A stretch of DNA of 64,000 nt, taken from NCBI GenBank assembly GCA_963846305.1, contig CAWJVK010000002.1:22690-86689 (forward strand), in the 5' to 3' direction. This stretch comes from an uncultured Gammaproteobacteria bacterium. Lineage in GTDB: Bacteria; Pseudomonadota; Gammaproteobacteria; Steroidobacterales; Steroidobacteraceae. Under the pieces are notes generated by a model. That model searched no databases and was not told where the DNA came from. It saw nothing but the letters and a program-made list of their open reading frames with translations. The position numbers were made by a program, and so were the translations under genes. Position 1 is the first letter of the stretch. Each line of letters opens with the position of its first letter. Below are positions 2,183-31,171 of this stretch, one piece after another.

Positions 2183-3247
2183 TCACCAGGGCAGCGAGGG
2201 GCTGACCAGCGGGCCGAGGCGATTGGCGACCACGAGCGGCAGCCGGCGCCAGGTGCCGGTCAGCAGGCGCCGCGAGCGGCCGCCGACGTCCGGGTCCGCT
2301 CCCAGGGCGGGTTCCTTCAGCGCGGACGATGACCAGGTAGCCCAGTGCAGCGGCACCGGCCGCGCACCCCACTGCAGCTTGAACCGGTACGGTCCGCTGT
2401 CCACCGTCGAGCGTCCGAAGTCGAAGCGCGTGTGGCTGCTCTCGATCGCGTGGCGCAGCACTTCCCAATAGAGCGCCATGTTGATCGACTTCGACTTCAC
2501 GGCCGACAGCGTCGCCGCCCACGGGATCTCCAGCGTGCCGCGGTGGCTCACCAGGAAGGCGCCGGCGACCGGTGATCCGCCGAGATCGAGCAGCAGCACC
2601 CGGCACTGGTCGCCACAATCTTCGAACAAGGTCTCGAAAAACCGGCGCGGGTATACGGGCGTGCCGAGGTCTCGCATCACCTCGGCAAACACCCGGTAGA
2701 AATCCGGCACCAGTTCCGCGCCGCCGGTTCGTGCCAGCGGTTGCTCGCGCTGGGCGCGCTTCACCTGCGAGCGCAGCTTGGAGCCGACGGCCTTGCCGAG
2801 AGCCTCGACACTGGGCGGCAGGTCGAGCAGCAGCGTCGCCTTGTCGCGGCGCATGGGCCAGTCGACGGGCGGGGCGTCGACCTCGCGGACCTCGAGGTGC
2901 CTGGCACCTGTTTCCCGGGCGAGGGTCCTGGCCTGGTCGAACAGGGCCGCATGGATCGCCGGCGCGTCGGCCAGCGCGCCGCCATGGTTGAAATACGGCA
3001 GCGACGTCAGCCGGTTGCCGAAAATCAGACTGCGTTGGGCCACCAGCGGAAGCACCCCAGCCAGCGAGCCGTCGGGATGCCGCGCGGTGACGAAATGGGC
3101 CTGCTGCCCAAACAGCCGGGCAACGGCCAGCGGCCAGCGCGAGGCGTGATAGGCGGATGCCTGTGCGTGCGCGGCCACGTAGTCGTCCCAGCCGTCTGGC
3201 GGTCGTTGGTGGTGCGTCTCAATCGCAATTGCAGTCGCAATCGACAT
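2183..3247 (-). CDS. FemAB-family protein of the PEP-CTERM/exosortase-locus-associated type
   Basis: ORF 2183..3484 trimmed to the internal ATG at 3247 (MSIATAIAIETHH...). Contains YHASRWPLAVARLFG...LPLV...LTSLPYFNHGG, which resembles the FemAB-related PEP-CTERM-associated family. Divergent from the AsnB-like gene. Confidence 0.65.
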   Translation of the reverse strand: MSIATAIAIETHHQRPPDGWDDYVAAHAQASAYHASRWPLAVARLFGQQAHFVTARHPDGSLAGVLPLVAQRSLIFGNRLTSLPYFNHGGALADAPAIHAALFDQARTLARETGARHLEVREVDAPPVDWPMRRDKATLLLDLPPSVEALGKAVGSKLRSQVKRAQREQPLARTGGAELVPDFYRVFAEVMRDLGTPVYPRRFFETLFEDCGDQCRVLLLDLGGSPVAGAFLVSHRGTLEIPWAATLSAVKSKSINMALYWEVLRHAIESSHTRFDFGRSTVDSGPYRFKLQWGARPVPLHWATWSSSALKEPALGADPDVGGRSRRLLTGTWRRLPLVVANRLGPLVSPSLPW

Positions 3248-7515: not shown

Positions 7516-8229
7516 ATGTGCGGTGCGCGTGCGCTCGCCGGATCGGCAGGGGCAGTGGTCGAGGTTATTCATCGTCGTCGCGCGCACGGTGGCCTGTTGC
7601 TGATGCTCGCCGCGGTCGGTGCGGTAGGCTGCGGTCACGCCGGCGCTGATTCGGCAGCGTCCGTAGGCGCGAGCAACCCCAAGCCAAGGAACGCCCCCGG
7701 GCCCAGTTCAATTCTCCGTAACTGGGACGCCGACAAGGACGGCACGATCAGTGCGACCGAGGCAGCTGCAATGAACGAGGCATTGGCTGCAAAGCCCGAT
7801 CGCCCGTTGGCGGCGCTCGACAGCGACGGCGATGGCAAACTGGGTGCGCAGGAGATTGCGGCGCTCAATGTCCGCCTCGCGGAGTACGCGGTAAAGAAAT
7901 CCGCTGCGCCGAAGAAGGCTGGTAATCGCGCGCCAAAGACCCCGGCCATCGATTGCGCCGCGGGCACTGGCACTGCGACGGTCACCTGGCAGCGACCGTC
8001 GGAGAACGTGGACGATACGCCGCTAAAGGACCTCGCGGGCTTCGTGATCCGTTACGGAACGAGTCCGCAATCACTGCCGTGCCGTGCTGCCGTCAAGGAT
8101 GCGGCTGCGACGAAGTACGTGGTCGAGCGCCTTGGCGTCGGGACTTGGTATTTCTCGGTAGTCGCCGTCAATCGCGACGGTGTCGAAAGCCCGGCCAGCG
8201 ACCTCGCCTCCAAGACCATCGATAAATAG
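7516..8229 (+). CDS. secreted (lipobox-like) protein with two EF-hand-like Ca-binding loops and a C-terminal FN3 domain
   Basis: ORF 7360..8229. ATG at 7516, or GTG at 7555 giving VVEVIHRRRAHGGLLLMLAAVGAVGC. Loops DADKDGTISATE and DSDGDGKLGAQE. FN3-like tail ATVTWQRP...GTWYFSVVAV. The stop TAG lies inside a REP. Confidence 0.65.
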   Translation: MCGARALAGSAGAVVEVIHRRRAHGGLLLMLAAVGAVGCGHAGADSAASVGASNPKPRNAPGPSSILRNWDADKDGTISATEAAAMNEALAAKPDRPLAALDSDGDGKLGAQEIAALNVRLAEYAVKKSAAPKKAGNRAPKTPAIDCAAGTGTATVTWQRPSENVDDTPLKDLAGFVIRYGTSPQSLPCRAAVKDAAATKYVVERLGVGTWYFSVVAVNRDGVESPASDLASKTIDK

Positions 8230-8274
8230 GTGCCTGGCACCGAATTATAAATAGGTGCCTGGCACCTATTTATT
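8222..8274. repeat. REP locus A: doublet of the GGTGCCWGGCACC palindrome
   Basis: ATAAATAGGTGCCTGGCACCGAATT followed by TATAAATAGGTGCCTGGCACCTATTTATT. Sits between convergent stops at 8229 and 8282. Confidence 0.9.
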
Positions 8275-10238: not shown

Positions 10239-10244
10239 GCTGCG

Positions 10245-10257: not shown

Positions 10258-10312
10258 AGGTACCGTGCGCCGGAAACCCGCGCCGTCGATGGGCCGTGCC
10301 GCCGCCCGCCGA

Positions 10313-10330: not shown

Positions 10331-10361
10331 TCGACTGGTTCACACTTTCTAAGAAGCCCGG

Positions 10362-10414
10362 TAAATCGGTGCCTGGCACCGAATTAATAAATAGGTGCCT
10401 GGCACCTATTTATT
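10362..10414. repeat. REP locus B: doublet (variant-arm unit + canonical unit)
   Basis: TAAATCGGTGCCTGGCACCGAATTA followed by AATAAATAGGTGCCTGGCACCTATTTATT. The canonical unit contains the TAA stop of the regulator gene (10410-10412). Confidence 0.9.
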
Positions 10415-11855: not shown

Positions 11856-12047
11856 ATGCGCACCAACATCGTCATCGACGACCGATTGATCGCCGAGGCC
11901 ATGCGGCTTTCGGGGGCCGCTACCAAGAGGCAGGTCGTCGAGGACAGCCTGCGGCTGATGGTCAAGCTGAAGCGCCAGGAGCAGGTGCGGGAGTCGCGCG
12001 GCAAGCTGCGTTGGACGGGTGACCTGGACGCGATGAGGCGCGACTGA
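11856..12047 (+). CDS. vapB: type II antitoxin, VapB-like
   Basis: 63 aa, MRTNIVIDDRLIAEAMRLSGAATKRQVVEDSLRLMV... GGAG lies 7 nt upstream of the ATG. Immediately followed by a PIN toxin gene. Confidence 0.8.
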   Translation: MRTNIVIDDRLIAEAMRLSGAATKRQVVEDSLRLMVKLKRQEQVRESRGKLRWTGDLDAMRRD

Positions 12048-12059
12048 CGCGGCGCGACC

Positions 12060-14705: not shown

Positions 14706-15667
14706 GCGCCACCCCGCACCCGTATTCCACGTTGACGCCGGACGTCGTGATCGACGCCGTCGAGGCGATCGGCCACCGCTGCGACGGCCGCGTGCTGGCG
14801 TTGAACAGCTACGAGAATCGCGTGTACCAGGTCGGGCGCGAGGATGACGCGCCGGTGGTCGTCAAGTTCTACCGGCCCGGGCGCTGGACCACGCCCGCGA
14901 TCCTCGAGGAGCACGCGTTCGCGCTCGAGCTCGCGGCGGCCGAGGTGCCGGTGATCGCGCCGCAGGTCCGCGAGGGTGAGTCGCTGCACGAGTCGCACGG
15001 GTTCCGCTATGCCGTCTATCCGCGGCAGGGCGGGCACTGGCCGGAACTCGGGACGCGCGACGAGCGGCAGTGGATGGGCCGCTTCCTCGCGCGCATCCAC
15101 GCCATCGGTCGTACGCGGCAGTTCCGTCACCGCGCGGAACTCGACTGGCGGGTGCTGGGCGGTGAGACCATGGGTTACCTGCTCGAGGAAGGCTGGATCC
15201 CTGCGCACATCGAGCTTGCCTACGAGACGGTGGCGCGCGACGCGCTGATGCTCGTCGAGCAGCGCTTCGACGAGGCCTCGCCCTACCACACGCTGCGGCT
15301 GCACGGGGACTGCCACCCCGGCAACGTGCTGTGGACCGACGCCGGGCCGCACTTCGTCGACCTCGACGACTGCATGACCGGGCCGGCGGTGCAGGACCTG
15401 TGGATGCTGCTGTCGGGCCGCCCCGAGGAGATCCAGTCCCAGCTCGACGACCTGCTGGAGGGTTACGCGCAATTCGCCGACTTCGACTGTCACGAGACGC
15501 GACTGATCGAGCCGCTGCGGACGCTCCGGATCATGCACTACGCGGGCTGGCTCGCCCGGCGCTGGGAAGACCCGGCGTTTCCGCGGGCCTTCCCGTGGTT
15601 CGAGGAGCCCAAGTACTGGGAGCAGCACGTCCTGGACCTGCGCGAGCAGATCTCCGCGATGGAATAA
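14687..15667 (+). CDS. srkA: stress-response Ser/Thr kinase SrkA (YihE/RdoA family)
   Basis: LTPDVVIDAVEAIGHRCDGRVLALNSYENRVYQVGREDDAPVVVKFYRPGRWT and LHGDCHPGNVLW...FVDLDD. No ATG at an appropriate position, so GTG 14687 was chosen (about 326 aa, matching the family length). Confidence 0.8.
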   Translation: MPSQASRATPHPYSTLTPDVVIDAVEAIGHRCDGRVLALNSYENRVYQVGREDDAPVVVKFYRPGRWTTPAILEEHAFALELAAAEVPVIAPQVREGESLHESHGFRYAVYPRQGGHWPELGTRDERQWMGRFLARIHAIGRTRQFRHRAELDWRVLGGETMGYLLEEGWIPAHIELAYETVARDALMLVEQRFDEASPYHTLRLHGDCHPGNVLWTDAGPHFVDLDDCMTGPAVQDLWMLLSGRPEEIQSQLDDLLEGYAQFADFDCHETRLIEPLRTLRIMHYAGWLARRWEDPAFPRAFPWFEEPKYWEQHVLDLREQISAME

Positions 15668-15717
15668 ATAGGTGCCAGGCACCGATTTAATTAATCGGTG
15701 CCTGGCACCTATTTATT
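15663..15717. repeat. REP locus C: inverted doublet (REPIN-like 55-bp composite palindrome)
   Basis: AATAAATAGGTGCCAGGCACCGATTTAA | TTAATCGGTGCCTGGCACCTATTTATT. The halves are reverse complements apart from a 1-nt indel. Contains the TAA stop of srkA. Confidence 0.9.
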
Positions 15718-15763
15718 GCGCCCATTCACGGAATTGTTTCCTGTTTCGCTTAGCATTGGCGTG

Positions 15764-16762
15764 ATGTCCACGATTCTTGTCACCGGCGGAGCCGGCTACA
15801 TCGGCAGCCACGTCGTTCGCCAGCTCATCGAGCGCGGCGAGCGAGTGGTGGTACTCGACAACCTCTCGAGCGGCTTTCGCAGCGCGGTGCTCGGTGCGCC
15901 GCTGGTCGTGGGCGACACGGCCGACCGCGAGGTGGTCGCGCGCCTGCTCGCCGAGCATTCGGTCGCGACGGTGATGCACTTCGCGGCGCACACGATCGTG
16001 CCGGAATCGGTGTCGAACCCGCTCAAGTACTACGGCAACAACACCAGCGCCACGCGGAACCTGCTCGAGTGTTGCGACCGTGCCGGCGTCGCGCACTTTG
16101 TCTTTTCGTCGACCGCCGCGGTCTACGGGATCCCTGCCGAAGGCCTCGCGCGCGAGGATTCGCCGACTGCGCCGATCAACCCGTACGGCCTGTCGAAGCT
16201 GATGAGCGAATGGATGCTGCGCGACCTTGCCGCGGCGTCCACGCTGCGCTACGTGGCGCTGCGCTACTTCAACGTCGCGGGCAGCGACCCGGGCGGGCGC
16301 ATCGGCCACACCGCTCCGAACGCGACGCTGCTGGTCAAGGTGGCCTGCCAACAGGCGGCGGGCGTGCGCCCCGGGATTTCGGTCTTCGGCACCGACTACC
16401 CGACTCCCGACGGCACCGGCGTGCGTGACTACATCCACGTCGAGGACCTGGCGGCCGCGCACCTCAAGTCGCTCGATTACCTGCGTGCCGGCGGTGCCTC
16501 GACGACACTGAACTGCGGCTATGGGCACGGTTACAGCGTTCGCGAGGTGCTCAGCACGGTGGAGCACGTGAACGGCAAGCCGCTCAGGGTGAACGAGGGA
16601 CCGCGCCGCGCCGGCGACCCGCCCTCGCTGGTGGCCCATGCCGCGCGGATCCGCGAGCTGCTCGGCTGGCAGCCGCAGTTCGACGACATTGCGACCATCG
16701 TTCGGTCGCAGCTCGAGTGGGAGTTCAGGTTGCTGCGGGAACCAGAGCTGCAAAGGAACTGA
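15764..16762 (+). CDS. galE: UDP-glucose 4-epimerase
   Basis: MSTILVTGGAGYIGSHVVRQL..., YGLSKLMSE (YxxxK), RYFNVAG. Confidence 0.9.
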   Translation: MSTILVTGGAGYIGSHVVRQLIERGERVVVLDNLSSGFRSAVLGAPLVVGDTADREVVARLLAEHSVATVMHFAAHTIVPESVSNPLKYYGNNTSATRNLLECCDRAGVAHFVFSSTAAVYGIPAEGLAREDSPTAPINPYGLSKLMSEWMLRDLAAASTLRYVALRYFNVAGSDPGGRIGHTAPNATLLVKVACQQAAGVRPGISVFGTDYPTPDGTGVRDYIHVEDLAAAHLKSLDYLRAGGASTTLNCGYGHGYSVREVLSTVEHVNGKPLRVNEGPRRAGDPPSLVAHAARIRELLGWQPQFDDIATIVRSQLEWEFRLLREPELQRN

Positions 16763-16812
16763 GCGGAACTGGCCGGCGGCCGAATGTAGCCTTAATTATC
16801 CGTGGTAATCAT

Positions 16813-18528
16813 TTGAAATCATTGATATATCGTGCGTCTATCCTGGCGTCGGTGCTCGCCCTGTCGGCCTGTGGAGGCAGCGGCGGCGGTGGCGATGGTG
16901 GGGGCGGCAGCGGCCCGCCGCCTGCCACTGTCGCCGTCGGCGGCCGAATTACCTTCGACCGCGTCCCGTTCTCGGCGACGCCCGGGCAGGGACTCGATTA
17001 CGCCCAGACCTTCGAGGCCCCGGCGCGCCGCATCGTGGTCGAGGCGCTGCGTGACAACGGCAACGTGCTTGCGACCACGGTCACCGACGACGCCGGCACC
17101 TACAGCGTGCAGGTGCCGGCGAGCACCAGTGTCCGTATCCGCGCCCGGGCGCAAAGCGTGGTCGCCGCGACGGCGGGCGCCCCTGCCTCCTGGAGTGTGT
17201 CGGTACGCAACAACACCGGCGGCGACGCGCTCTACGTGCTCGACAGCCCCGCGTTCAATTCAGGATCCGCCGCACAGACCCGCGACCTGCGGGCCGCCTC
17301 GGGCTGGGGTGGCAATTCGTACACGTCCACCCGGGCAGCTGCACCGTTCGCGCTGCTCGACACCGTGTATGCGTCGATTCGCTTCGTCGTGGACCAGGGT
17401 GGCTACACGGGCGCATTTCCGTCGCTCGACCTGTACTGGAGCCCGCAGAACATGTCCTCGTCGGACTTCTCCAGGACCAACGGGCGCATCGTGACGACCG
17501 GCTATTTCACCTTCGACGGCGGGGTCGGCGACGGGATGTACGTGCTGGGCAACGCCGCGCTGGGCGCGGCATCCGACACCGACGAATACGACCAGCACGT
17601 GCTGGCCCACGAGTTCCAGCACTACATCGAGGACAAGCTCAGCCGGTCCGACAGCATCGGCGGGGCACACTCGATCAGCGATCGACTCGACCTGCGAGTG
17701 GCGTTCAGCGAGGGATTTGCCGACGCGTTCTCCGGCATGGTGCTCGGCGATCCCTTGTACCGCGATTCGTATGGCGCGGGCCAGTCCGCGGACGTGCACG
17801 CCGACATGGAGGCAGACCCGGTCAACGTCCGCGGCTGGTTCGGCGAAGCCTCGGTCGCGTCCATTGCCTGGGACTTGTTCGATACGGCCCCGGACGGCGT
17901 TGACGCGGGATCGGTCGGCTACGCGCCGATGCTCTCGGTGTTCCGTAGCGAATTGCGGACCGGGGTGCCGTTCGACAGCGTCTTCGCCTTTGCAGCGGCG
18001 CTGAAGCAGCGAGCCGGGGTGGACACCGCCCTGGTCAACGCGGTCGTGTCCCGCGAGCAGATCGTGGCGGCTTCGATCAACCCCTATGCGAACGGCGAGA
18101 CGCACGATGGCGGCTTGCCGGACACGCTGCCGGTCTATGCTCAACTGACGCTCAACGGGCCAACCGCCGAGGTGTGCGGCACGGCGGACGCGGGCTCCTA
18201 CAACAAGCTGGGCAATCGTCGACTGCTGCGTTTCAACGTGCCAAGCGCGCGGCCCGTCGACATCTTCGTGACGTCGCAGGACCTACAGGTGCCGATATCG
18301 CCGGATCCGGACATCTACCTATGGAATGCCGGCTACTTCGATTCCTCGGAATGCGCTGGGCCAGGATCGGGCATCGGTTGCACGCTGCCGCAGAATTCGG
18401 AGCGCTACACCGGCGTGTTGCCGGCGGGGGACTACGTGCTCGAGGTTTTCGAGTACAGTCACGTTGATCCGGACCCGGGCGCCACACGCCGTGGCCGGAC
18501 CTGCATGTTGGTAACGATCACCGGTTGA
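16813..18528 (+). CDS. lipoprotein zinc metalloprotease (HExxH) with a C-terminal pre-peptidase-like domain
   Basis: A TTG start at 16813 gives MKSLIYRASILASVLALSAC (perfect lipobox) plus a Gly-rich linker. HVLAHEFQHY matches the HExxH motif. C-terminal GDYVLEVFEY is PPC-like. Confidence 0.6.
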   Translation: MKSLIYRASILASVLALSACGGSGGGGDGGGGSGPPPATVAVGGRITFDRVPFSATPGQGLDYAQTFEAPARRIVVEALRDNGNVLATTVTDDAGTYSVQVPASTSVRIRARAQSVVAATAGAPASWSVSVRNNTGGDALYVLDSPAFNSGSAAQTRDLRAASGWGGNSYTSTRAAAPFALLDTVYASIRFVVDQGGYTGAFPSLDLYWSPQNMSSSDFSRTNGRIVTTGYFTFDGGVGDGMYVLGNAALGAASDTDEYDQHVLAHEFQHYIEDKLSRSDSIGGAHSISDRLDLRVAFSEGFADAFSGMVLGDPLYRDSYGAGQSADVHADMEADPVNVRGWFGEASVASIAWDLFDTAPDGVDAGSVGYAPMLSVFRSELRTGVPFDSVFAFAAALKQRAGVDTALVNAVVSREQIVAASINPYANGETHDGGLPDTLPVYAQLTLNGPTAEVCGTADAGSYNKLGNRRLLRFNVPSARPVDIFVTSQDLQVPISPDPDIYLWNAGYFDSSECAGPGSGIGCTLPQNSERYTGVLPAGDYVLEVFEYSHVDPDPGATRRGRTCMLVTITG

Positions 18529-18541
18529 GGTTTTACCTGTC

Positions 18542-19180
18542 ATGAAGCATCGAATTCGCGCGGGACACTTCGCCATGGGCCTTGCGTTGGCGCTGGCGGC
18601 GGCACTTGCGGCGGGCTGCGGCGGCAAGTCGGACGGCGATGCGGTCAGCAAGGCGGCAAATGGCGCCGACAAGGCACCTGCCACGCCGGCCCAGGAGCAG
18701 GTCAAGGCTGCGCAGCCGGAGGCGGAAAAACTGGCCAATGCGGTGGCGACCGGCAAGAGCTCGGCGCCGGTGGACCTCAAGTACGACATCCTGGCGAAGC
18801 CGGCCGTCGGTGAGCCTTTCGAGGTCGAGTTGACGCTGCTGCCGCGCCTTGCGGTGGATTCGCTGGACGTGGAGATCTCCGCGGTCGAGGGCCTGACACT
18901 CGTCGGCAGCGATCCGATCAGGTTCGAGAACGTGCAGGCCGGCGAGCGTTACACCGCGAAGGTCCTGGCCCAGTCGCAGGTGGCGGGCATGTACTACATC
19001 GGGGTCTCGGCGAAGATGACGACCAGTACGCAGAGCGAAGTCCGCGGCTTCTCGGTGCCGATCGTCGTCGGCGTCATTGCGGCTGCCGAGAAGCCCGAGC
19101 CTGCGCGCGATGCCAGAGGCGAGGCGGTGGAGTCGATGCCGGCGGCGTCGCCAGGCGACCAGGCCCAGCAAAATAAATAG
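18542..19180 (+). CDS. hypothetical lipoprotein
   Basis: MKHRIRAGHFAMGLALALAAALAAGCGG. No recognisable domain. The stop TAG lies inside a REP. Confidence 0.6.
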   Translation: MKHRIRAGHFAMGLALALAAALAAGCGGKSDGDAVSKAANGADKAPATPAQEQVKAAQPEAEKLANAVATGKSSAPVDLKYDILAKPAVGEPFEVELTLLPRLAVDSLDVEISAVEGLTLVGSDPIRFENVQAGERYTAKVLAQSQVAGMYYIGVSAKMTTSTQSEVRGFSVPIVVGVIAAAEKPEPARDARGEAVESMPAASPGDQAQQNK

Positions 19181-19214
19181 GTGCCAATAAATAGGTGCCA
19201 GGCACCTATTTATT
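19172..19214. repeat. REP locus D: half unit + full unit
   Basis: AATAAATAGGTGCC immediately repeated as AATAAATAGGTGCCAGGCACCTATTTATT. Confidence 0.9.
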
Positions 19215-19326
19215 GCCGGCCATAGGGCATCCGCCGATTCGGGGGTAGGAGACATTCTCCATTTGCAGGGAGAATGTCCGCGGTTTCCCCGGTATACTCC
19301 GCGCCCTTTTCCCCGGGCGCCCCAAC

Positions 19327-21159
19327 GTGACCGTCGACCCCACCAGACACCTTCGTAACATCGCGATCATCGCGCACGTCGACCACGGCAAGACCACCCT
19401 GGTTGACCAGCTCCTCAAGCAGTCCGGGACGTTCGCGGCCCGCACGGTCGTGCCGGATCGCGTCATGGATTCCAACGCGCTCGAGCGCGAACGCGGCATC
19501 ACGATCCTCGCGAAGAACACCGCGATCCGCTGGAACGACTACCGGATCAACATCGTCGATACGCCGGGGCACGCCGATTTCGGCGGTGAGGTCGAGCGCG
19601 TGCTCTCGATGGTCGATTCGGTGCTGCTGCTGGTCGACGCGGTGGACGGCCCGATGCCGCAGACGCGCTTCGTCACGCAGAAGGCTTTTGCGCACGGCCT
19701 GCGCCCGATCGTGGTCATCAACAAGATCGACCGCCACGAGGCGCGCCCGAACTGGGTGCTGGACCAGACATTCGACCTGTTCGATCGCCTCGGCGCGACC
19801 GAGGAGCAGCTCGACTTCCCGGTGATCTACACCTCGGCGATCCAGGGCTTCGCGACCCACGATCCGGGCCATCGCGGCGGCGACATGACCACGCTGTTCG
19901 AGACCATCGTGAAGCATTGCCCGCCGCCGGACGTTGACCTCGACGGGCCGTTGCAGCTGCAGGTCTCGCAGCTCGACTACTCCAGCTACGTCGGCGCGAT
20001 CGGCATCGGTCGCATCAAGCGCGGCACGCTGAAGAAGGGCATGCAGGTCACGGTGGTTGACCGGCAGGGGCGCGCCCGAAACGAGCGCGTGATGCAGGTG
20101 CTCGGCTTTCACGGCCTCGACCGCATCGAAGTCGATTCGGTGGATGCGGGAGACATCGTCGCCTTCGCGGGCATCGAGACCCCGGCCATTTCCGACACCT
20201 TGTGCGATCCGTCGAAGCCCGAGGCGCTGCCGCCGCTGGTCGTGGACGAGCCGACCATCGGCATGACGTTCGAGGTCAACACCTCGCCATTCGCGGGCAA
20301 GGAGGGCAAGTACCTCACCAGCCGCCAGATCCGCGAGCGACTGCTGCGCGAGGCGCTGACCAACGTGGCGCTGAGGGTCGAGGAGACCGAGGATCCCGAC
20401 AAGTTCCAGGTTTATGGTCGCGGTGAACTGCACCTGGGCGTGCTGCTGGAGAACATGCGCCGCGAGGGTTACGAGATTGCGGTTTCGCGGCCGCGCGTGG
20501 TGATCAAGGAAATCGACGGCGTGCAGAACGAGCCGTACGAGATCCTGGCGGTGGACATCGAGGATTCGAGCCAGGGCGGCGTGATGACGGCGCTCGGCAG
20601 CCGCGGCGGACAGCTGCAGGCCATGCACCCCGACGGCAAGGGCCGCGTGCGTCTCGACTACGTGATCCCGGCACGCGGCCTGATCGGCTTCCAGACCGAG
20701 TTCCGTACGCTGACCTCGGGACTGGGCCTGCTGTTCCACGTGTTCGACCACTACGCGCCCGTGCTCGACAAGCCGATCGCGGCGCGCCAGAACGGCGTGA
20801 TGATCTCCAACGGCCAGGGCATGGTGCTCGGGTATTCGCTGTTCAACCTGCAGGAGCGCGGACGGCTGATGGTCGGCCACGGCGACGAGGTCTACGAGGG
20901 CCAGCTCGTCGGCATCCACAGCCGCGACAGCGACCTGGTCGTGAATCCGCTGAAGGGCAAGAAGCTGACCAACGTGCGGGCCTCGGGCCGCGACGAGAAC
21001 ATCGTGCTCACGCCGCCGATCCGTTACACGCTCGAGCAGGCGATGGAGTTCATCGAGGACGACGAACTGGTGGAGATCACGCCGGCGTCGATTCGCCTGC
21101 GCAAGCGCGCGCTGAAGGAGCACGACCGCAAGCGTGCCGGACGCGCCGACGACGCATAA
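19327..21159 (+). CDS. typA: translational GTPase TypA/BipA
   Basis: GTG start. [39 protein letters not shown]. 610 aa. Confidence 0.95.
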
Positions 21160-21210
21160 ATAGGTGCCAGGCACCTATTTATTTAATTCGGTGCCAGGCA
21201 CCTGTTTTTT
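21156..21210. repeat. REP locus E: canonical unit + variant unit with T-run
   Basis: ATAAATAGGTGCCAGGCACCTATTTATTT followed by AATTCGGTGCCAGGCACCTGTTTTTT. Contains the typA TAA stop and encodes the last 11 codons of the RAYT gene on the other strand. Confidence 0.9.
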
Positions 21211-21861
21211 GGGGCGGCCCCTGGGGCGTTTCGGACACGCGAAGTATCCGGGGTTCGACGACGTCTCCTCGATCCATCGCGGGTCCCCGAACGGGCGCTG
21301 GCGATTCACGCAGTCACGCAGTCCCTCAAGTTCGTCGGGCGACTGAGGCTCGTTGACCAGTTCAATCCAGTGGCCAGGCAGGTCCACTGGCGGGTCGGCA
21401 AGGCGGTTGGCGGGGTCGTCCACCAGGCGCAATGCAAGGCTGCCCCACGGCCAGTGCTCAGCCTTTTGCGCGAGCCCTGCGCGCAACGCATTGCGTTCCA
21501 CGTAACGCATGACCGTCAGCAGGTGCGCGTCGTTCTTGATCGCGAAAGCGCGGAATCTTCCCTGCCACACGCTGCCCGAGGTACCGTAGATGAGGTGATG
21601 GCGATGCGTGTGCGTGGTCGTCAGCCAGTGCATCCAGCGGCTGATGTCATGCGGGCCGTCGGGCGACACCACCAGGTGGAAGTGGTTGGGCATCAGGCAG
21701 TAGGCCAGCACGCTGAGTGGCAGGCGTTCCTGGGCCCGGTCGATCAAGGCCAGGAATGACTTGAAGTCGGCGGACCGGCGAAAGACCACGGCCTTGTTGT
21801 TACCGCGGTTGATCAGGTGGTAACAGCCGCCGGCAACCAGCATTCGGGGACGTCTCGGCAT
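21175..21861 (-). CDS. REP-associated tyrosine transposase (RAYT, IS200/IS605-like Y1 HUH enzyme)
   Basis: 228 aa. YHLINRGNN, HUH motif AYCLMPNHFHLVV, WQGRFRAF, and the catalytic-Tyr helix MRYVERNALRAGLAQKAEHWPWGS. Confidence 0.85.
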   Translation of the reverse strand: MPRRPRMLVAGGCYHLINRGNNKAVVFRRSADFKSFLALIDRAQERLPLSVLAYCLMPNHFHLVVSPDGPHDISRWMHWLTTTHTHRHHLIYGTSGSVWQGRFRAFAIKNDAHLLTVMRYVERNALRAGLAQKAEHWPWGSLALRLVDDPANRLADPPVDLPGHWIELVNEPQSPDELEGLRDCVNRQRPFGDPRWIEETSSNPGYFACPKRPRGRPKKQVPGTELNK

Positions 21862-21919
21862 CGGCCGAGCATGGGCCGTGCCGGCAGGCGGCGCTCTCGC
21901 TCAATCTTGCGGAATCGCC

Positions 21920-21948
21920 AATAAATAGGTGCCTGGCACCTATTTATT
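21920..21948. repeat. REP locus F: single canonical unit
   Basis: AATAAATAGGTGCCTGGCACCTATTTATT. Contains the TAA stop of purU (21944-21946). Confidence 0.9.
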
Positions 21949-22804
21949 CGAAGACGACGGTGCGATTGCCGTAGGCCAGGACGCGGTGCTGAAGGTGTGC
22001 ATGCACGGCGCGCGCGAGCACGATTTTCTCCAGGTCGCGGCCCTTGCGGACCATGTCCTCCACGGAGTCCTTGTGACTCACGGCAACGACGTCCTGGGCG
22101 ATGATCGGGCCCGCATCCAGTTCCGCGGTGACGTAGTGACTGGTCGCGCCGATCACTTTCACCCCGCGCGCATGGGCCGCGTGATATGGCTGCCCGCCCG
22201 CGAAGGCCGGAAGGAACGAGTGATGGATGTTGATGATGCGGTCGGGCAGCGTGTCGATGAAGCGCGGCGAGACGATCTGCATGTAGCGCGCGAGCACCAC
22301 GAGGTCGATCCCTTCCTCATGCAGTAACGCGAGCTGCCGGTCCTCGGCCGCGTCCTTCGTGTCCCGCGTAACCGGCACGTGTTCGAAGCGGATTCCATGG
22401 CGCGCCGCGACCGGCGCCAGGTCCAGGTGATTGCTGACGATCAGCGGGATGTCCGCGGACCATTCACCGGATTCCCAGCGCGACAGCAGGTCGTGCAGGC
22501 AATGCCCGTAGCGCGAGACGAACAGGGCGATGCGCTGGCGGCGATCCGCGCGCTCCAGCCGCCAGGTCATCGAGCAGGGCGCCGCGACCTCGTCGGCGAA
22601 GACGGTTTCGAAGCGCTCGCCGGCAGTCGGGTCGTCGGCCGGTGGTGTCCACTCGACGCGCATGAAGAACACCTGGCGCTGGGTGTCGACGTGCTGGTCC
22701 AGGTCGACGATGTTGCCACGGACCCTGCGGATGAGCGTGGTCACCGACGCCACGAGCCCTTCGCGGTCCGGGCAATGGATCAGCAGGATCAGGTTGGTTT
22801 TCAT
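21944..22804 (-). CDS. purU: formyltetrahydrofolate deformylase
   Basis: ACT-like N-terminus MKTNLILLIHCPDREGLVA. IINIHHSFLPAFAGGQPYHAAHARGVKVIGATSHYVTAELDAGPII. Confidence 0.95.
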   Translation of the reverse strand: MKTNLILLIHCPDREGLVASVTTLIRRVRGNIVDLDQHVDTQRQVFFMRVEWTPPADDPTAGERFETVFADEVAAPCSMTWRLERADRRQRIALFVSRYGHCLHDLLSRWESGEWSADIPLIVSNHLDLAPVAARHGIRFEHVPVTRDTKDAAEDRQLALLHEEGIDLVVLARYMQIVSPRFIDTLPDRIINIHHSFLPAFAGGQPYHAAHARGVKVIGATSHYVTAELDAGPIIAQDVVAVSHKDSVEDMVRKGRDLEKIVLARAVHAHLQHRVLAYGNRTVVFE

Positions 22805-22907
22805 CGCATCGGTCGCCCGGCGCAGCGGAAGCGGGACATTGTCTGTTTTTCCACCGGTTTTCGCACCAGTCGCTGGCTCGGGTCACCGGGCCGGGGGACC
22901 CGGGATC

Positions 22908-22936
22908 GAAAATAGGTGCCTGGCACCTATTATTTC
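22908..22936. repeat. REP locus G: degenerate single unit
   Basis: GAAAATAGGTGCCTGGCACCTATTATTTC. Its right end overlaps the first two bases of the TGA stop (22935-22937, minus strand) of the GGDEF-EAL gene. Confidence 0.8.
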
Positions 22937-25900
22937 AGGCGGTCAGGCGGACGGTCGACGAGTCCTCGGCCAGCAGCGTGGCCAGCGACTCGACCGGCAG
23001 CGGTGGCCCGATGTAGTTGCCTTGCGCGTACTGGATGCCGATGTCCGCGAGCCGCGCGAGCACGCGGGCGCTGTCCACGCGCTCGGCGATGGTGCTGATG
23101 CCCATCGTATCGCCGATCTGCACGATTGCCTCGACCATGCTGCGGTCGATGCGGTCGTGGTTCACGTTGTGCATGAACTGGCCGTCGATCTTCAGGTAAT
23201 CCACCGGCAGGCTCTTCAGGAACATGAACGACGAGAGGCCGCTGCCGAAGTCGTCGAGCGCGAAGCTGCAGCCGCGCCGGCGCAACTCGTCGATGAAGTG
23301 GGTCGCGGCGGCCAGGCTGGTCATGGCGCCGGCCTCGGTGAGCTCAAAGCACAGCGCCCCCGGGCTCAGGTCGGCCGCGGCGATCTCGTTGATCACGTAG
23401 TCCAGGAACTGCTCGTCGTTCAGCGTAGTGCCCGAGATGTTGATGCTGAGCGTGAACGGCGTCCGGTTCGCCGCGTCGTTGCGGCGGTGCGCAAGCCGGC
23501 TGCAGGCCTGTCGCACGACCCAGCGGTCGACCACTGGCATGAGGTTGAAGCGCTCGGCAGCCGGTATGAACTCGGCGGGCTGCACCAGCGTTCCGTGCTC
23601 GTCGCGCATGCGCAGCAGCAGTTCGAACCTGCGCTGCTTGTCCACGCCGGTGCGGATCGGCACGATGGGCTGGCACATCAGCACCATCAGGTCCTCGTCG
23701 CAGGCGCGGTTGATGCGCGACACCCACTGCATTTCGCGGTGCCGTTCCGGGGCCCGTCCCTGCTCGTAGGTCTGCACGCGGTTGCGGCCGGAGTCCTTGG
23801 CGGAGTAGCAGGCCACGTCGGCCGCGCTCATCACCGAGCCTGCGGTCTCCGAGTCGCCGGTGATCTCCGAGATGCCGATCGAGACGCCGATCTTCAGCAC
23901 GCGCTCCTGCCAGATGAAGCGGTAGTCGCGAATTGCCTGGCGCAGCCCCTCGGCGATGCGGTGGGCGGTGTCGAGCGTGCAGTCGTGCAGCAGCACGCCG
24001 AATTCGTCGCCGCCGAGTCGTGCCAGCGTGTCGCTGGTGCGGATACGTGTCTGGACCACGCTGGTGACCTGCTTCAGCAGCCGGTCGCCGGCCTCGTGAC
24101 CGCAGGTGTCATTGACCACCTTGAACTGGTCGAGGTCCAGGTACAGCAGCACGTGGCGCAGGCGGTCGGAGTCACGCGCTCCCTGCAGTGCGTCGCCCAG
24201 TCGCACCTCGAATTCACGGCGATTGATCAGCCCGGTCAGCGCGTCGTGTGTTGCCTGGTAGGTGAGGGCGCGCTGCAGGCGCCGCTCCTGGCTCACGTCG
24301 TGGAACACCATCACGGCGCCGATCAGCCGGCCGGTCCGGTCGCGAATCGGTGCCGCGGAATCCTGCACCGAGATCTCCTGGCCGCGGCGGTTGACCAGCA
24401 GCGCCGGCTCGGGCAGTTCCACGACACGGTCTTCGCGCAGGCAGCGCAGGATCGGGCTGTCGACCGGAACGCGGGTGACCTCGTTCAGCACCTGGAAGAC
24501 CTGCGAGACCGGGCGGCCCGCGGCTTCTCCAGCGGTCCAGCCGGTGAGCTGCTCGGCCACCGGGTTCAGGTACTCGACCAGCCCGCCGGCGTCGGCGGTC
24601 AGGACGGCGTCGCCAATCGACTGCAGCGTGACCTGCGCCTTCTCCTTTTCCTCGGCGAGCTGTATCTCGGCGAGCTTGCGGGTGCTGATGTCGGCCAGCG
24701 TGCCTTCGTAGCCGGCAATTTCGCCGTCCAGCCCGCGCAGGACCCGCGCATTCTCCAGCACGGTGATCACGCGGCCGTCGCGGCAACGCAGCTGGTACTC
24801 GGCGCTCTGCACCCGCCCGTCGCGCCGCAGGGTATCCACCACTCGCTCCCGGTCGGCGGGGTCCACGTACAGCACCGACGTTGAAGGCAGCGTGAGCAGG
24901 TCCTCGTCGCGCTCGTAGCCCAGCATCGCCACCAGCGCAGGGTTGACCGACTCCAGCTGGCCGGACACGTCGGCCCGGTACACGCCCTCGATCACGTTCT
25001 CGAACAGGCCGCGATAGCGCGCCTCGCTGCTGCGCAGGGCCTCCTCGGACTGCCTGCGCTCGATCGCAATGCCGGCGAGCGCGGTGAGGCGGCCCATCAG
25101 TTCGAAGTCTCGCTTCAGCGGGCTGCGCGGCGTGCGGAAATACAGCGCGACCGTGCCGATCATGGGGCCGTCCGACGAGCGGATCGGGGTGGACCAGCAC
25201 GCGCGCAGGCCGGCGGACAGCGCCGGCTCGCGCAGGTGCTCCCACAGCGCGTCGCGCGCGATGTCGGCCACCACGACCTGCCGTTGCAGGAACGTGGCGG
25301 CGGCGCAGGAACCGTTCCTCGGCCCGACCTCGACACGCTTCAGCGTGGCGAGGAACGGGGCCGCAATGCGTTGCCCGGCGACCACCCGAAGCACGTTCGG
25401 CACGGCTTCGTACAGGCTGACGGTGCACAGGGCATCGGGCGTGACGTGCTCCGCGGTCTCCGCGATCGCCTCGAGCGTCGCCGGCAGGCTCGCGTTGGCG
25501 GTGATGCGCTCGAGCACCAGCCGTTCGCCGGCGGCAAGGAATTCGCTGCGCTTGCGCTCGGTGATGTCGGTGATGCTGCCGCGGACCAGGCGTCGCTCGG
25601 AGGACGGCAGGCGGACCAGCCTGACCTCGCAGGGAATGACGTGCCCGTGCGCGTCGCGATGCAGCCACTCGAAGCAGGGCGCCTCGCCCTCGAGTGCGCG
25701 ATCGAGGTAGCCGCGCGACACGCCGGCGGAAGGGGTGCCGTCGGCCTGGGTCTCCGGGCTGATATGCGCCGGTCCAACCGCAAGCAGTTCCTCGCGCGTC
25801 ATCTTGAAGAAGCGCACTGCGTTCTCGTTGCACTCGACGAAGCGTCCGAGGTCGATGTCGAAGACCACCAGCACTTCCGGGGCGTTCTCGACCAGCGTGC

Positions 25901-26426
25901 GGTAGCGCGCCTCGCTCTCGCGGATGGCCGCCTCGGCAAGCTTGCGATCGGTGGTGTCGCGCAGGCACGCGATATAGATGCAGCGGTCGTCGAGCCGGAC
26001 CTTGCTCACGCCCAGTTCGGCATCGAACAGGGTCCCGTCCTGCCTGCGCCCGCGCGTCTCGCGGGGCGCGAGGTCGATCTGCGTGTTTTCGAGGTACTCG
26101 GACAGTTCGTCCAGCGCCTCGGTGAGCACGGTGTTGCGGGCGAGCGACGGGATCAGCAGGTCCAGCCGCCGGCCGCGTGCCGCATCTTCCGAATAGCCGA
26201 AGATTCGTTCCGCGGTGCTGTTCAGCGTCTCGACCAGGCCCGAGGCGTCGACGGTCAGGATCGCGTCCTTGACGTGGTCCAGGATCGCCTGCAGCTGGCC
26301 CGTGGTGTCCGCGCAGCCTGCGGGTCCGGCGCGGGCGACGGGCGCATCGAGCTTCCCGGGCAGGCCTGGTTCCTGTCCCGGGCGCTCCACTGCGCCGTCC
26401 TTGCTGCGATCCCTGTGCCGAGTCAT
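22935..26426 (-). CDS. multi-PAS/GAF diguanylate cyclase-phosphodiesterase (GGDEF-EAL) signalling protein
   Basis: ORF 22935..27302 trimmed to ATG 26426 ([11 protein letters not shown]...). Four PAS-like segments, one GAF-like segment, [11 protein letters not shown], and an EAL domain (FELTE..., [25 protein letters not shown]). Confidence 0.85.
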   Translation of the reverse strand: [1163 protein letters not shown]

Positions 26427-26594
26427 CGATGCCACACCAAGCCTGGCGCCCCGCAAACGGGGCAGGCGGTACCGGATACTAGGCGCCGCGTGCCGACCAC
26501 CGATGTGACCCGGGTCGCAATCGGGCCGGCCGCTGCGGACTGCGGGTGCTGTGCCATCCGGTACAATTCCCGCGGTCGCTGCAGCAGGCTCCCA

Positions 26595-27440
26595 ATGTCC
26601 CCAGACCCCACAGAGCGCACAGGCCACGCCGACCACGTTCCAGGCAGGCTGTCGCTGATCGGGCGTGACGACCCGCCACCCTTCGTGGTGCTCCACGAGC
26701 ACGGCGCGGCGCCGGCGCTGGTGGTCTGCGACCACGCGAGCCGCGCCTTCCCCGGGGCGATGCAGCGGCTCGGGTTGCCGCCGCTGCAGACCTGGGAGCA
26801 CGTCGCCTGGGACATCGGCGCGGGCGAGATTGCGCGAGGCATATCCAACGCGCTCGACGCGCCGGCCGTGCTGGCCGGCTACTCGCGCCTCATCGTGGAC
26901 TGCAATCGACCTCCGTACCACGAGGAGTCGATCCGCGCCGAGAGCGATGGATGGGTCGTCCCGGGCAACCAGGCGCTCGACGAACTGGAGCAGCGCACAC
27001 GGCTCGCCTGCTTCTTCGATCCCTACCACGAGGCGATCGCCGCGATGCTCGGCGGCTTCCGCGCACGCGGCGTGGCGCCGTTGGTGGTGTCGGTGCACAC
27101 GTTCACGCCGCTGATGGCCGGCAAGCTGCGGCCCTGGCACGTTGGCGTCCTCTGGGACCGCGACGAGATTTCCGCGCGCTACATGATCGAGGGGCTCGGT
27201 GCGATCGCCGGTGTCCTGGTCGGAGACAACGAGCCCTACAGCGGCCGGCACCCGGCCGACTACACCGTCGATCATCACGCCGAGGGCGGTGGGCTGCGGC
27301 ACGTCTGCGTCGAGATCAGGCAGGACCAGATCGAATCGCCCGCGGGCGTGGAGCGCTGGGTGCGCATCATGGCGCGCCTGCTGCGCGGCCTGATGTCGGA
27401 TATCGCCGGCGCGGGGCCGGGCCCGCAGGGCGGGGCGTGA
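26595..27440 (+). CDS. N-formylglutamate amidohydrolase-family protein
   Basis: ORF trimmed to ATG 26595. VVCDHASRAFP, AWDIGAGEIA, SRLIVDCNRP, VSVHTFTP, CVEIRQD. Confidence 0.75.
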   Translation: MSPDPTERTGHADHVPGRLSLIGRDDPPPFVVLHEHGAAPALVVCDHASRAFPGAMQRLGLPPLQTWEHVAWDIGAGEIARGISNALDAPAVLAGYSRLIVDCNRPPYHEESIRAESDGWVVPGNQALDELEQRTRLACFFDPYHEAIAAMLGGFRARGVAPLVVSVHTFTPLMAGKLRPWHVGVLWDRDEISARYMIEGLGAIAGVLVGDNEPYSGRHPADYTVDHHAEGGGLRHVCVEIRQDQIESPAGVERWVRIMARLLRGLMSDIAGAGPGPQGGA

Positions 27441-27442
27441 GC

Positions 27443-28411: not shown

Positions 28412-28495
28412 GGACGGGCGCGCGTGCCCCTGTATAATCTCCCGACGGCCGCCCCTGGCCGATCGAGTCATGCAGGGAATCGTCTCCTGGCGAAG

Positions 28496-29398: not shown

Positions 29399-29401
29399 CC
29401 A

Positions 29402-29429
29402 AATAAATAGGTGCCAGGCACCTATTTAT
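29402..29429. repeat. REP locus H: single canonical unit
   Basis: AATAAATAGGTGCCAGGCACCTATTTAT, between the convergent stops of the cyclase-FHA gene (29398) and pckG (29429). Confidence 0.9.
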
Positions 29430-31171
29430 CAGCCCAGCGCTTTCTTGACCCGCTGGCACTGCTCGAGCAGGGCCGGAGGTGTCCGCTCGCCGAACTCGCC
29501 GAGGTAGGCGCCGATCTCTTCGATCTCGCGGTGCCAGGCGTCGCGGTCCAGGTCGAGCAACTGCTGCAGCGCGCCGTCGGCGAGCTTGACGCCGTCGAGG
29601 TCGAGGTCTACCTGGTGCGGCAGGAAACCAATGGGAGTGTCCTGCGCCTTCGCACGTCCTTCGCAGCGGTCGATGACCCACGAAAGCACGCGCAGGTTGT
29701 CGCCGAAGCCCGGCCACAGGAACTTGCCGTCCTTGTCCTGCCGGAACCAGTTGACGTGGAACACCCTGGGCAATTGCTTGACGCGGCCCTCGAACGACAG
29801 CCAGTGCGCCCAGTAGTCGGCGAAGTTGTAGCCGCAGAATGGTTTCATCGCCATCGAGTCGCGGCGCACCACACCGACCTTGCCGACCGCTGCCGCGGTG
29901 GTCTCCGAGGCCATGCCTGCGCCGACCATCACGCCGTGCGCCCAGTCGCGGGCCTCGTACACCAGCGGTGCGAGCTCTCGGCGGCGCCCGCCGAACAGGA
30001 TCGCGGAGATCGGCACGCCTTCGGGGTGCTCCATCAGGTGGTTGTACGCGGGATTCTGCTTGGCCGAGACCGTGAAGCGTGAATTCGGGTGCGCCGCCGG
30101 CCCGTTCGCCTTGTCGTAGGGGCGTCCCTGCCAGTCGGTCACCGGCGTGCCGCTGCTGCGGCCTTCCCACCACGGCTGGTTGTCGGCGGTGAGCGCGACG
30201 TTGGTGAAGATCGTGTCGTGGTGGATCATCTCGTAGGCGTTGCGATTGGTCTTCGGGCTGGTGCCCGGGACCACGCCGAAGAACCCGGCCTCGGGATTGA
30301 TCGCGCGCAGGCGACCGTCCTTGCCCACGTGCAGCCAGGCGATGTCCTCGCCGATGGTCCAGACCTTCCAGCCGGGCATGTTGTCCGGCGGGATCAGCAT
30401 GCCGAGGTTGGTCTTGCCGCAGGCCGACGGGAACGCGGCGGCGACGTAGTGGACCTCGCCTCGCGGATTCTCGAGCCCGACGACCAGCATGTGCTCGGCC
30501 AGCCAGCCCTCGGTGCGCGCCTGCCAGCTCGCGATGCGCAGTGCGTGGCATTTCTTGCCGAGCAGCGCGTTGCCGCCGTAGCCGGAGCCGATGCTCTTGA
30601 TCGACAACTCCTCGGGGAAGTGCATGATGAAGCGGCGGTCAGGGTCGAGGTCGCCGACCGAGTGCAGGCCCTTCACGAAGCTGCCGTCCTTCTCGATCCG
30701 CGCCAGCGCCGCCGCGCCCATGCGAGTCATGATCCGCATGTTCAGCACGACGTACGGGCTGTCGGTGATCTCGACGCCGCAGCGGGCGTAGGGCGAGTTG
30801 ATCGGGCCCATGCAATAGGGCACGACGTACAACGTCCGGCCCTTCATGCAGCCGTCGAACAATGCATCGATCTTGCGGTGGCCCTCTGCGGGGTCCATCC
30901 AGTTGTTGTTCGGTCCCGCGTCCTCGCGGTTGCTGGTGCAGATGAAGGTCAGGTGCTCCACGCGCGCCACGTCGGACGGGTTCGAGCGGTGCAGGTGGCA
31001 GTTGGGAAAGTTGTCCGCGTCCAGCTCGAGCAGGTCGCCGCTTGCGAGCATCAGGCGCGTCAGTTCGTCGCGCTCGACATCGGATCCGCTGCACCAGTGG
31101 ATACGGTCGGGTTGCGTGAGCTTGGCGGTCTCGGCCACCCAGGTGGCAAGCGTGGAATTGGTCGTGGTCAT
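29429..31171 (-). CDS. pckG: phosphoenolpyruvate carboxykinase (GTP)
   Basis: NNNWMDP, YVVPYCMGP, GSGYGGNALLGKKC, FPSACGKTN, NWFR. Confidence 0.95.
   Translation of the reverse strand: MTTTNSTLATWVAETAKLTQPDRIHWCSGSDVERDELTRLMLASGDLLELDADNFPNCHLHRSNPSDVARVEHLTFICTSNREDAGPNNNWMDPAEGHRKIDALFDGCMKGRTLYVVPYCMGPINSPYARCGVEITDSPYVVLNMRIMTRMGAAALARIEKDGSFVKGLHSVGDLDPDRRFIMHFPEELSIKSIGSGYGGNALLGKKCHALRIASWQARTEGWLAEHMLVVGLENPRGEVHYVAAAFPSACGKTNLGMLIPPDNMPGWKVWTIGEDIAWLHVGKDGRLRAINPEAGFFGVVPGTSPKTNRNAYEMIHHDTIFTNVALTADNQPWWEGRSSGTPVTDWQGRPYDKANGPAAHPNSRFTVSAKQNPAYNHLMEHPEGVPISAILFGGRRRELAPLVYEARDWAHGVMVGAGMASETTAAAVGKVGVVRRDSMAMKPFCGYNFADYWAHWLSFEGRVKQLPRVFHVNWFRQDKDGKFLWPGFGDNLRVLSWVIDRCEGRAKAQDTPIGFLPHQVDLDLDGVKLADGALQQLLDLDRDAWHREIEEIGAYLGEFGERTPPALLEQCQRVKKALG

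Follow-up and report, generated by a model that had tools for sequence, protein, structure and literature searches.

Does a transposase-like gene belong with the short palindromes that bracket it and, if so, what kind of unit do they form? The question is raised by a 64,000-nucleotide stretch of DNA from an uncultured Gammaproteobacteria bacterium placed in the Steroidobacteraceae (assembly GCA_963846305.1, contig CAWJVK010000002.1, positions 22,690 to 86,689 of the forward strand; hereafter the window), in which a gene for a Y1 HUH transposase lies between purU and typA with copies of one palindrome on both sides. Repetitive extragenic palindromes (REPs) and REP-associated tyrosine transposases (RAYTs) offer the chief known example in which a domesticated transposase and its own short repeats have coexisted over long evolutionary periods, and to our knowledge nearly all work on them has dealt with the GTAG-tagged REPs of enterobacteria and pseudomonads. 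Our analysis indicates that the locus is very probably a REPtron-like unit, and one that falls within the TIRYT branch of the RAYTs. For this branch, which is the largest of the RAYT-like ones and corresponds to subclass 2.1 and Group 1, associated REP-like sequences were reported to be absent (Quentin et al. 2018, PMC6006769).

A Y1 gene of the TIRYT type

The gene is an intact open reading frame of 228 aa on the minus strand (21175..21861) with an ATG start, which we favour over the 222-aa version in the database because the family consensus likewise begins MPR. A preliminary description of the window had pointed out its HUH motif, its Tyr helix and a WPWGS motif, and all three were recovered: PNHFHLV at aa 58-64 (21670-21690), the catalytic Tyr helix RYVERNALRAGL with Y120 at aa 119-130 (21472-21507) and, in the ORF translation, WPWGS at aa 137-141, besides VWQGRF at aa 98-103. 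Across an alignment of 54 homologues the HUH, WQ and Tyr residues are all invariant, among them H60, H62, R119, Y120, V121, E122, R123 and N124.

Profile searches place the protein among the Y1 HUH transposases, which are single-strand DNA nucleases/ligases. PF01797 (Y1_Tnp) is matched over aa 14-124 (50.4 bits, E 3e-13; curated cut-off 23), the sole NCBIfam match is REP_Tyr_transpos (NF047646), and the sole sequence match in the PDB is 4er8, the E. coli TnpA_REP bound to a REP hairpin. An AlphaFold (AF2) model computed from the 54 homologues (pLDDT 90.2, pTM 0.85) finds its top Foldseek match in 4er8_A (E 1.6e-9, TM 0.76 on the target), followed by the transposases of IS608, ISDra2 and IS200; the matches 4er8, 2a6m, 2xma and 2f4f span E values from 1.6e-9 to 2e-5. 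The RAYT identity proposed earlier thus stands as far as the Y1 HUH class and the REP_Tyr_transpos match go, but the protein is not a canonical RAYT, its NCBIfam score being 73.8 bits against a curated cut-off of 80.

Behind the catalytic core, a family-specific C-terminal helical domain (about aa 150-205, 21247..21414, minus strand; LPxxW..VNxPQTxxELxxLRxCVNRQRPFG) is conserved in two homologue alignments, is modelled with a pLDDT of 86-97 and is not present in E. coli TnpA_REP. It is followed by an AT-hook-like motif, PKRPRGRPKK (aa 210-219, 21205..21234, minus strand), in which a GRP core is flanked by Arg or Lys. G215, R216 and P217 are at least 90% conserved among the 54 homologues, and a basic residue with GRP occurs within the last 60 aa in 100 of 134 homologues; most other long homologues still have GRP, and only the 197-aa forms are without it. 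The family is large, with proteins of about 200-250 aa and a consensus R-x-RGRP-[RK]-K near the C-terminus, and the motif occurs in published TIRYT sequences too.

TIRYT reference sequences were taken from the alignment that Di Nocera et al. (2013, PMC3733652) give in their supplement. The window protein is 48% identical over its full length to dau 2153 of Desulforudis (E 7e-70), 44% over 219 aa to gbm 2474 of Geobacter (E 3e-70) and 40% to rba 2408 of Rhodopirellula (E 2e-53); with the E. coli RAYT it shares 23% identity over the core only. The TIRYTs and TIRtrons of that study correspond to subclass 2.1 of TnpA_Y1 (Quentin et al. 2018, PMC6006769) and to Group 1 of Bertels, and NHFH, WQ and 228 aa agree with the key characters of subclass 2.1, namely NH[YF]H or NHVH, a W[EQ] motif and a median length of 238 aa. 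The Tyr motif reads YVERNA in the window and YVERNP in certain homologues, the class 2 motif being Y---NP. By these sequence characters the protein is of the TIRYT/subclass 2.1 type.

The locus shares with TIRtrons the full-length similarity of 40-48%, a size of about 230 aa, the NHFH, WQ and YVERNA motifs, the C-terminal extension ending in RGRP[RK]K, and the bracketing of the gene by inverted copies of one sequence, the 3' copy of which overlaps the stop codon. Moreover, homologues of the window gene bear the published GGGGWSAS-type repeat. In contrast, TIRtrons have a long terminal inverted repeat (TIR) with GGGGWSAS, whereas the flanks in the window are a short perfect palindrome, GGTGCCWGGCACC, with A/T feet; GGGGWSAS is not matched by this repeat (GGTGCCWG) and is present in the related loci L113 and L115-117 (GGGGACAT) and L125 (GGGGACAC). 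The window repeat is also dense and dispersed, with 13 cores in 64 kb, while TIR families were reported to be just moderately abundant (Di Nocera et al. 2013, PMC3733652).

Other known systems resemble the locus in part. The E. coli REPtron (yafM/TnpA_REP with REP/BIME, PDB 4er8, subclass 2.2) is the top structural and PDB sequence match; it too has dispersed extragenic palindromes of its own around a gene present once (in the window there is likewise one copy), and its substrate is a hairpin, as is proposed here; however, the window protein, besides its low identity over the core, is 60 residues longer at the C-terminus, and its REP is a perfect palindrome with no 5' GTAG tag and no bulge. 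The REPIN-RAYT systems of Pseudomonas and Stenotrophomonas (Bertels & Rainey 2011; Nunvar et al. 2010, 2013) share REP doublets, a RAYT vertically inherited in a syntenic slot, differing REP classes flanking orthologous RAYTs ("orthogroups") and REP ends that supply stop codons. Their RAYTs (subclasses 2.2 and 2.5, Bertels Groups 2 and 3) are about 150 aa long with a DHxH motif and GTAG-tagged REPs and, unlike in REPINs, most doublets in the window are not consistently inverted because the unit itself is symmetric.

The flanking palindromes and their linkage to the gene

The repeat is a 29-bp perfect palindrome composed of an A/T-rich foot, GGTGCC, W, GGCACC and a second A/T-rich foot. In the window its 13-nt core, GGTGCCWGGCACC, occurs in 13 copies at nine loci against 0.22 expected, and the 29-mer, with up to three mismatches allowed, has eight matches against none in 100 shuffles. 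As a single strand the 29-mer folds (-10.8 kcal/mol, z -6.4) into a hairpin whose 13-bp stem is closed by a loop of 3 nt; the symmetry of each unit lets a doublet form a single long hairpin. No Rfam family was matched at any REP in the window, and a search of the literature for the core or the foot sequence as text returned nothing relevant.

At the 3' end of the gene lies a doublet, its outer REP at 21155..21183 (core 21163-21175, centre A, one mismatch) and its inner REP at 21182..21210 (core 21190-21202, centre A, feet AATTC/TGTTT). A single REP, a perfect 29-mer with centre T, lies at 21920..21948, 59 bp upstream of the RAYT ATG; like all REPs here it is given no strand. This is the arrangement that had been described, a doublet with centre A on one side and a single copy with centre T on the other. 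It had further been read as an inverted orientation of the two flanks, which holds for the window with its centres A and T but hangs on a single centre base that is not conserved, the corresponding centres being T/T in L120 and A/A,A in L121 (L numbers denote loci from related genomes). Seven other loci were correctly counted for the core (2896, 8229/8254, 10368/10394, 15671/15697, 19194, 22915 and 29410); however, they span 26.5 kb rather than 21 kb, and the 29-mer itself recurs within 21 kb as six other copies at five loci, not seven.

How telling is the bracketing? In the first 30 kb a REP is present at about nine of the roughly 22 junctions, which gives a chance of about 0.17 that a gene is flanked on both sides. 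What supports a linkage of gene and repeat is the comparison of genomes; the window by itself does not suffice.

The core flanks the gene on either side in six syntenic orthologues of the purU-RAYT-typA slot, with 66-83% identity, among them those of L063, L118, L119, L120 and L121. The proteins of the last four are 78%, 66%, 67% and 66% identical to the window protein and sit in the order PAS/GGDEF - purU - RAYT - typA, L119 being without purU. In every orthologue the 3' repeat overlaps the gene end and encodes its tail (such as VPGT.., CLAPN or CPWH). These orthologues, with the core on both sides and the 3' repeat over the stop codon, support the earlier reading of the locus as a REPtron. 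The same slot is occupied in seven genomes by proteins that are 62-83% identical; the ratio of nonsynonymous to synonymous substitutions (dN/dS) against orthologues is 0.15-0.23, with dS up to 1.2, and the window holds one copy of the gene. The Y1 gene is, by these comparisons, vertically inherited in a fixed slot, single-copy within the window and under purifying selection.

A sister species (CAVSZK010000019.1), about 90% identical and fully syntenic, has the orthologue and the same repeats in the same places. At least 43 cores were counted there, spread over at least 10 contigs and at least 22 distinct stretches of 8 kb; the palindrome is therefore more than a local duplication. The differences between the window and this relative are limited to flips of the centre base at several sites, a single copy in the window versus a doublet in the relative at 22915, and the copy at 19194, which is absent at the orthologous site of the relative and present in L118, L120 and L121. 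Across the window and the orthologous regions none of the 12 stem bases varies, and A or T stands at the centre of 215 copies out of 216, with feet of the types ATAGG, ATCGG, TTCGG and TTAGG and none with GTAG or GTGG; 136 kb of unbiased sequence yielded no copies with one mismatch. At shared junctions the cores remain perfect in spite of dS values up to 1.2, at which synonymous sites are saturated. Hence the core is maintained, by selection or by continued re-seeding, and does not drift neutrally.

More distant homologues (56-63% identical) have an inverted repeat, AAATAGGGGACATTCNCCGNTTT, at exactly equivalent positions of the gene flanks, where it encodes the tails KNR*, ENR* or KNRRMSPIS; the inner REP of the window's 3' doublet stands where these TIRYT homologues have their 3' TIR. 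The best sampled of them sit in a pyrF-hemE-ppa slot, and at these loci no GGTGCC core occurs in 78 kb, versus 6-13 per locus of the purU slot. Conversely, among 112 8-kb loci that were fetched by the REP pattern alone, 11 contain a Y1 homologue, far above chance. As a separate observation, a paralogous TIRYT (58-63% identical; L113, L114, L115 and L116) has its own conserved slot, pyrF-hemE-...-ppa-RAYT, in different genomes, and its inverted repeats lie at the gene flanks alone and are not dispersed in the 20-kb loci.

One lineage has a different repeat. The syntenic orthologue of L125 (62% identical) is a 197-aa RAYT without the AT-hook tail, and its region (L125:400-16275, compared with 15663-29430 of the window) has no GGTGCC repeats, GGTGCCWGGCACC being absent. 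Instead, nested palindromes of the published GGGGWSAS type, GGGGACA(C/T)TCTCC (GGGGACAYTCTCC), which are without long A/T feet, occupy the same junctions: PAS|purU, purU|RAYT, RAYT|typA, typA|next and epimerase|APH. The pattern looks like an in-place succession of repeat families. Relics of this second repeat type also occur in the window, as GGAGACATTCTCC-ATTTGCAG-GGAGAATGTCC at 19248-19282, adjoining the REP upstream of typA, and as a GGGGAATGTTCCCC hairpin followed by a T-run at 9438-9452 (region 9407-9452); similar pairs not accompanied by a gene lie in L120 (13543-13586) and L121 (604-651). We considered GGAGAATGTCC as a second abundant family of the window and rejected it, since it forms one pair only (19248-19282) besides a few relics. 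A switch of repeat class is in itself not new, since differing REP classes flank orthologous RAYTs in pseudomonads and stenotrophomonads; it is the replacement junction by junction that is notable here.

Copies at gene ends and the readings they allow

Copies of the repeat are found, singly or as doublets, at the 3' ends of many genes and often supply the TAA or TAG stop. Within the window a core is no more than 15 nt away from 11 gene ends, and eight of the nine loci are located between genes, with overlap limited to stop codons or last codons. The last nine codons of the RAYT gene (QVPGTELNK) are encoded by its 3' doublet, the inner REP carrying that tail, and its TAG stop (21175-21177) shares one base with the outer core (21163-21175), the last of that core. 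A TAG stop overlaps a core at one further gene end, that of the ORF 7360-8229, which has no family match, and a third TAG lies within a half-REP at 19170-19185. Four TAA stops stand at a fixed +3 offset (TAA-ATA-GGTGCC): that of typA (21157-21159) in the foot of the outer 3' REP, that of purU (21944-21946) in the foot of the 5' REP, that of an APH-family gene in the foot of the doublet at 15663-15717, and that of a sigma-54 activator gene. Supply of stop codons by REP ends has already been described for GTAG REPs.

The remaining copies are distributed as follows. Doublets occur at 8221..8274, between convergent genes (cores 8229 and 8254; one long hairpin, -22.6 kcal/mol), at 10360..10414 (cores 10368 and 10394), where the foot provides the TAA stop of the sigma-54 activator gene, and at 15663..15717 (cores 15671 and 15697), where a REPIN-like pair with centres A and T forms a 25-bp hairpin (-31.8 kcal/mol, z -11.6). 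The last doublet is truly inverted; the remaining ones are direct by their centre base. At 19170..19214 the half-REP that gives a TAG stop is followed by a full REP (19186-19214, core 19194). Single REPs lie at 22907..22935 (core 22915), between purU and a PAS/GGDEF/EAL gene, and at 29402..29430 (core 29410), between convergent cyclase/FHA and PEPCK genes, where the centre base is flipped in the 90% relative. A core-only copy without A/T feet at 2896..2908 is kept with its flanks in that relative. Core copies are confined to 2896-29430 and none occur in 30000-64000. The 2896 copy falls inside the longest ORF that can be drawn for a gene resembling asparagine synthase; since the first domain match lies downstream of the copy, it may sit in a 5' leader. 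The GC content and GC skew have no break that matches the REP-free second half of the window.

Two other readings of the sequence were dropped. CTGGCAC as a sigma-54 -24 box has no TTGC at the right spacing, and a Dcm/EcoRII site (CCWGG) at the centre was not kept as a reading; the equal counts of A and T fit two orientations of one element.

What might the protein do with the repeat? By analogy with E. coli TnpA_REP it would bind the hairpin on single-stranded DNA and, as TnpA_REP and the TnpA of IS608 do, could cleave and rejoin beside it, so that copies would be dispersed or re-seeded; IS200/IS605 elements (IS608, ISDra2), with their Y1 HUH fold and their chemistry that recognises single-strand hairpins, serve as the model. 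The C-terminal helical domain and the AT-hook-like RGRPKK tail may contact the A/T-rich lower stem and so replace the canonical GTAG read-out. The perfect palindrome may have arisen from the GGGGACAYTCNCC-type inverted repeat that flanks homologues and then have replaced that older family at the same junctions, and its copies may be kept as bidirectional terminators or 3'-end hairpins. Taken together, the TIRs of TIRYT/subclass 2.1 would be hairpin substrates whose A/T foot is read by the AT-hook, and a palindromic version would have proliferated, displaced the GGGGACAYTCNCC family junction by junction and now be maintained at gene ends. This full account is offered tentatively, and we consider it rather unlikely to be right in every part.

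The stability of the repeats invites a variant of the REPtron-like reading rather than another identity for the locus. The gene may be cognate to the repeats and yet no longer spread them, being kept for a host function, which could be to homogenise the copies already there or, during replication, to process or resolve hairpins or cruciforms, with REP positions essentially frozen. Perfect cores at the same junctions of genomes with saturated dS fit this variant, as do the few kinds of change seen (centre-base flips, single copy versus doublet, one loss) and the different repeat type at the same junctions of one lineage, which resembles in-place turnover rather than random insertion. However, copy numbers vary at junctions, as with single copies versus doublets and the half-REP at 19170-19185, and this implies ongoing local dynamics. 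We regard such a frozen, host-maintained system as possible, though on the doubtful side.

The position of the copies at gene ends could also mean that the palindromes are bidirectional intrinsic terminators or 3'-end RNA hairpins of the host, selected as such and with no relation to the Y1 gene. A stop codon adjoins all loci except one, the order of A-run foot, GC stem and T-run foot looks like that of a bidirectional terminator, a simple terminator scan accepts several copies, the positions are conserved across species, and the frequency of REPs at junctions would by itself permit a doubly flanked gene. Nevertheless, an unrelated terminator does not explain why the 3' end of the gene runs into the repeat in every orthologue and why distant homologues have their inverted repeat at the same position, nor the more than tenfold enrichment of Y1 homologues in the vicinity of the pattern that other genomes show. 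Independent terminators would not be expected to share 12 invariant stem bases, and a stem of just 5-6 GC pairs is weak for a terminator. As terminator and gene-linked roles are not exclusive, host terminators without any tie to the gene appear very improbable.

Finally, an active IS200/IS605-type insertion sequence or mobile "TIRtron" newly landed between purU and typA, with the palindromes as its ends and solo ends, would fit the Y1_Tnp domain, the inverted copies of one sequence that bound the gene and the next-best fold matches to the TnpA of IS608 and ISDra2, but is hardly credible for a gene that keeps one slot in seven genomes at 62-83% protein identity and dS up to 1.2, has one copy in the window and no tnpB among its neighbours, reads Y---N and not Y---Q, and carries the same palindrome at both ends rather than distinct left-end and right-end hairpins.

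Several points weigh against the REPtron-like reading itself or against the mechanism attached to it. The GTAG tag is missing from the REP, and the NCBIfam score lies under its curated cut-off. Since about nine of 22 junctions carry a REP, the bracketing in the window alone could be due to chance. The positions of the REPs are very stable between species, which argues for little recent transposition; at 19194, where alone presence and absence clearly differ, a clean empty-site comparison failed, the intergenic DNA being too diverged. The C-terminal part has no Pfam AT_hook match (E <= 0.1) and no helix-turn-helix match, and the correlation between AT-hook and foot comes from one lineage, the hookless L125 with no long A/T feet; a literature search combining AT-hook, HUH and transposase returned nothing relevant. 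Cleavage, mobility and the role of the AT-hook we infer only.

Related repeats elsewhere, neighbouring features and significance

Planctomycete relatives of rba 2408 (L122-L124) were considered as carriers of the window REP and rejected, as they have no GGTGCCWGGCACC. They have a related yet distinct inverted repeat, AAAAAGGTGTC-N-GGTACC/GACACC-TTTT, and identity of the core across phyla is therefore not explained by the rba 2408 subfamily. The resemblance suggests a common ancestral repeat design of an A-rich foot, GGKG....CACC and a T-rich foot.

The core itself was met beside divergent Y1-like genes in other groups. In metagenome-assembled genomes (MAGs) of Pirellula/Planctomycetaceae (L029:1558-2783, L023, L054, L060, L081 and L088) a conserved 386-aa Y1-like protein with NH[LM]H, FWEGRF and YVDLNP, whose top matches are TIRYTs and which is a very divergent relative, has TCAATAGGTGCCWGGCACCTATTGA 50-90 bp upstream of its start at six loci, and the core is scattered in these genomes. 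A gammaproteobacterial MAG of 52% GC (L105:2695-3380; also L057 and L093) has a 205-aa Y1 gene flanked by the core at either end; arms TTATCCACAGAATA..TATTCTGTGGATAA enclose the core, and TTATCCACA is identical to the DnaA-box consensus. In a Saprospiraceae MAG (L014:2480-3213, L011, L018 and L072) the core is the tip of a 45-nt hairpin, GCCTTGCATCTATAGGTGCCWGGCACCTATAGATGCAAGGC, which is repeated on four contigs and lies once directly upstream of a 210-aa Y1 gene with NHFH and YIHRNP. A 1064-bp contig binned as Synechococcales (L034) has REP flanks near-identical to those of Pirellula contigs such as L027 and is probably mis-binned. Bacillus, Clostridium and Oceanobacillus yielded just one or two copies apiece, and these may be chance matches; by our own estimate about four matches to a 19-mer are expected by chance in 596 Gb.

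The window has other notable features. A c-di-GMP-I riboswitch aptamer at 8973-9061 on the minus strand (63 bits against a gathering score of 35) is located upstream of a small gene with a He_PIG (putative Ig) domain (8282-8956), and an Rfam t44 RNA match lies at 51042-51144 on the plus strand (74.6 bits). The region 2741-12152 contains an asparagine-synthase family gene, a PEP-CTERM protein gene (9457-10170) and a sigma-54-dependent response regulator gene (10410-12152), a set typical of a PEP-CTERM/exosortase neighbourhood.

Should none of the mechanistic steps hold, the palindrome would simply be one more REP family. If the full account given above is true, the 13-nt core beside divergent TIRYT-like genes of Planctomycetota, Bacteroidota and another gammaproteobacterium would represent a deeply conserved recognition code between protein and hairpin. 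Questions are opened on the reading of a hairpin foot by an AT-hook and on the retention of repeats as terminators and stop-codon donors. On the reading that we consider very probable, the locus is a clean counter-example, from uncultured Steroidobacteraceae-like Gammaproteobacteria, to a TIRYT branch without REPs. By joining a TIRYT-type gene in a fixed slot with an abundant, perfectly palindromic non-GTAG repeat it would bridge "TIRtrons" and REPtrons, and the sister lineage with another repeat at the same junctions would provide a natural series for how repeat specificity shifts with the protein.

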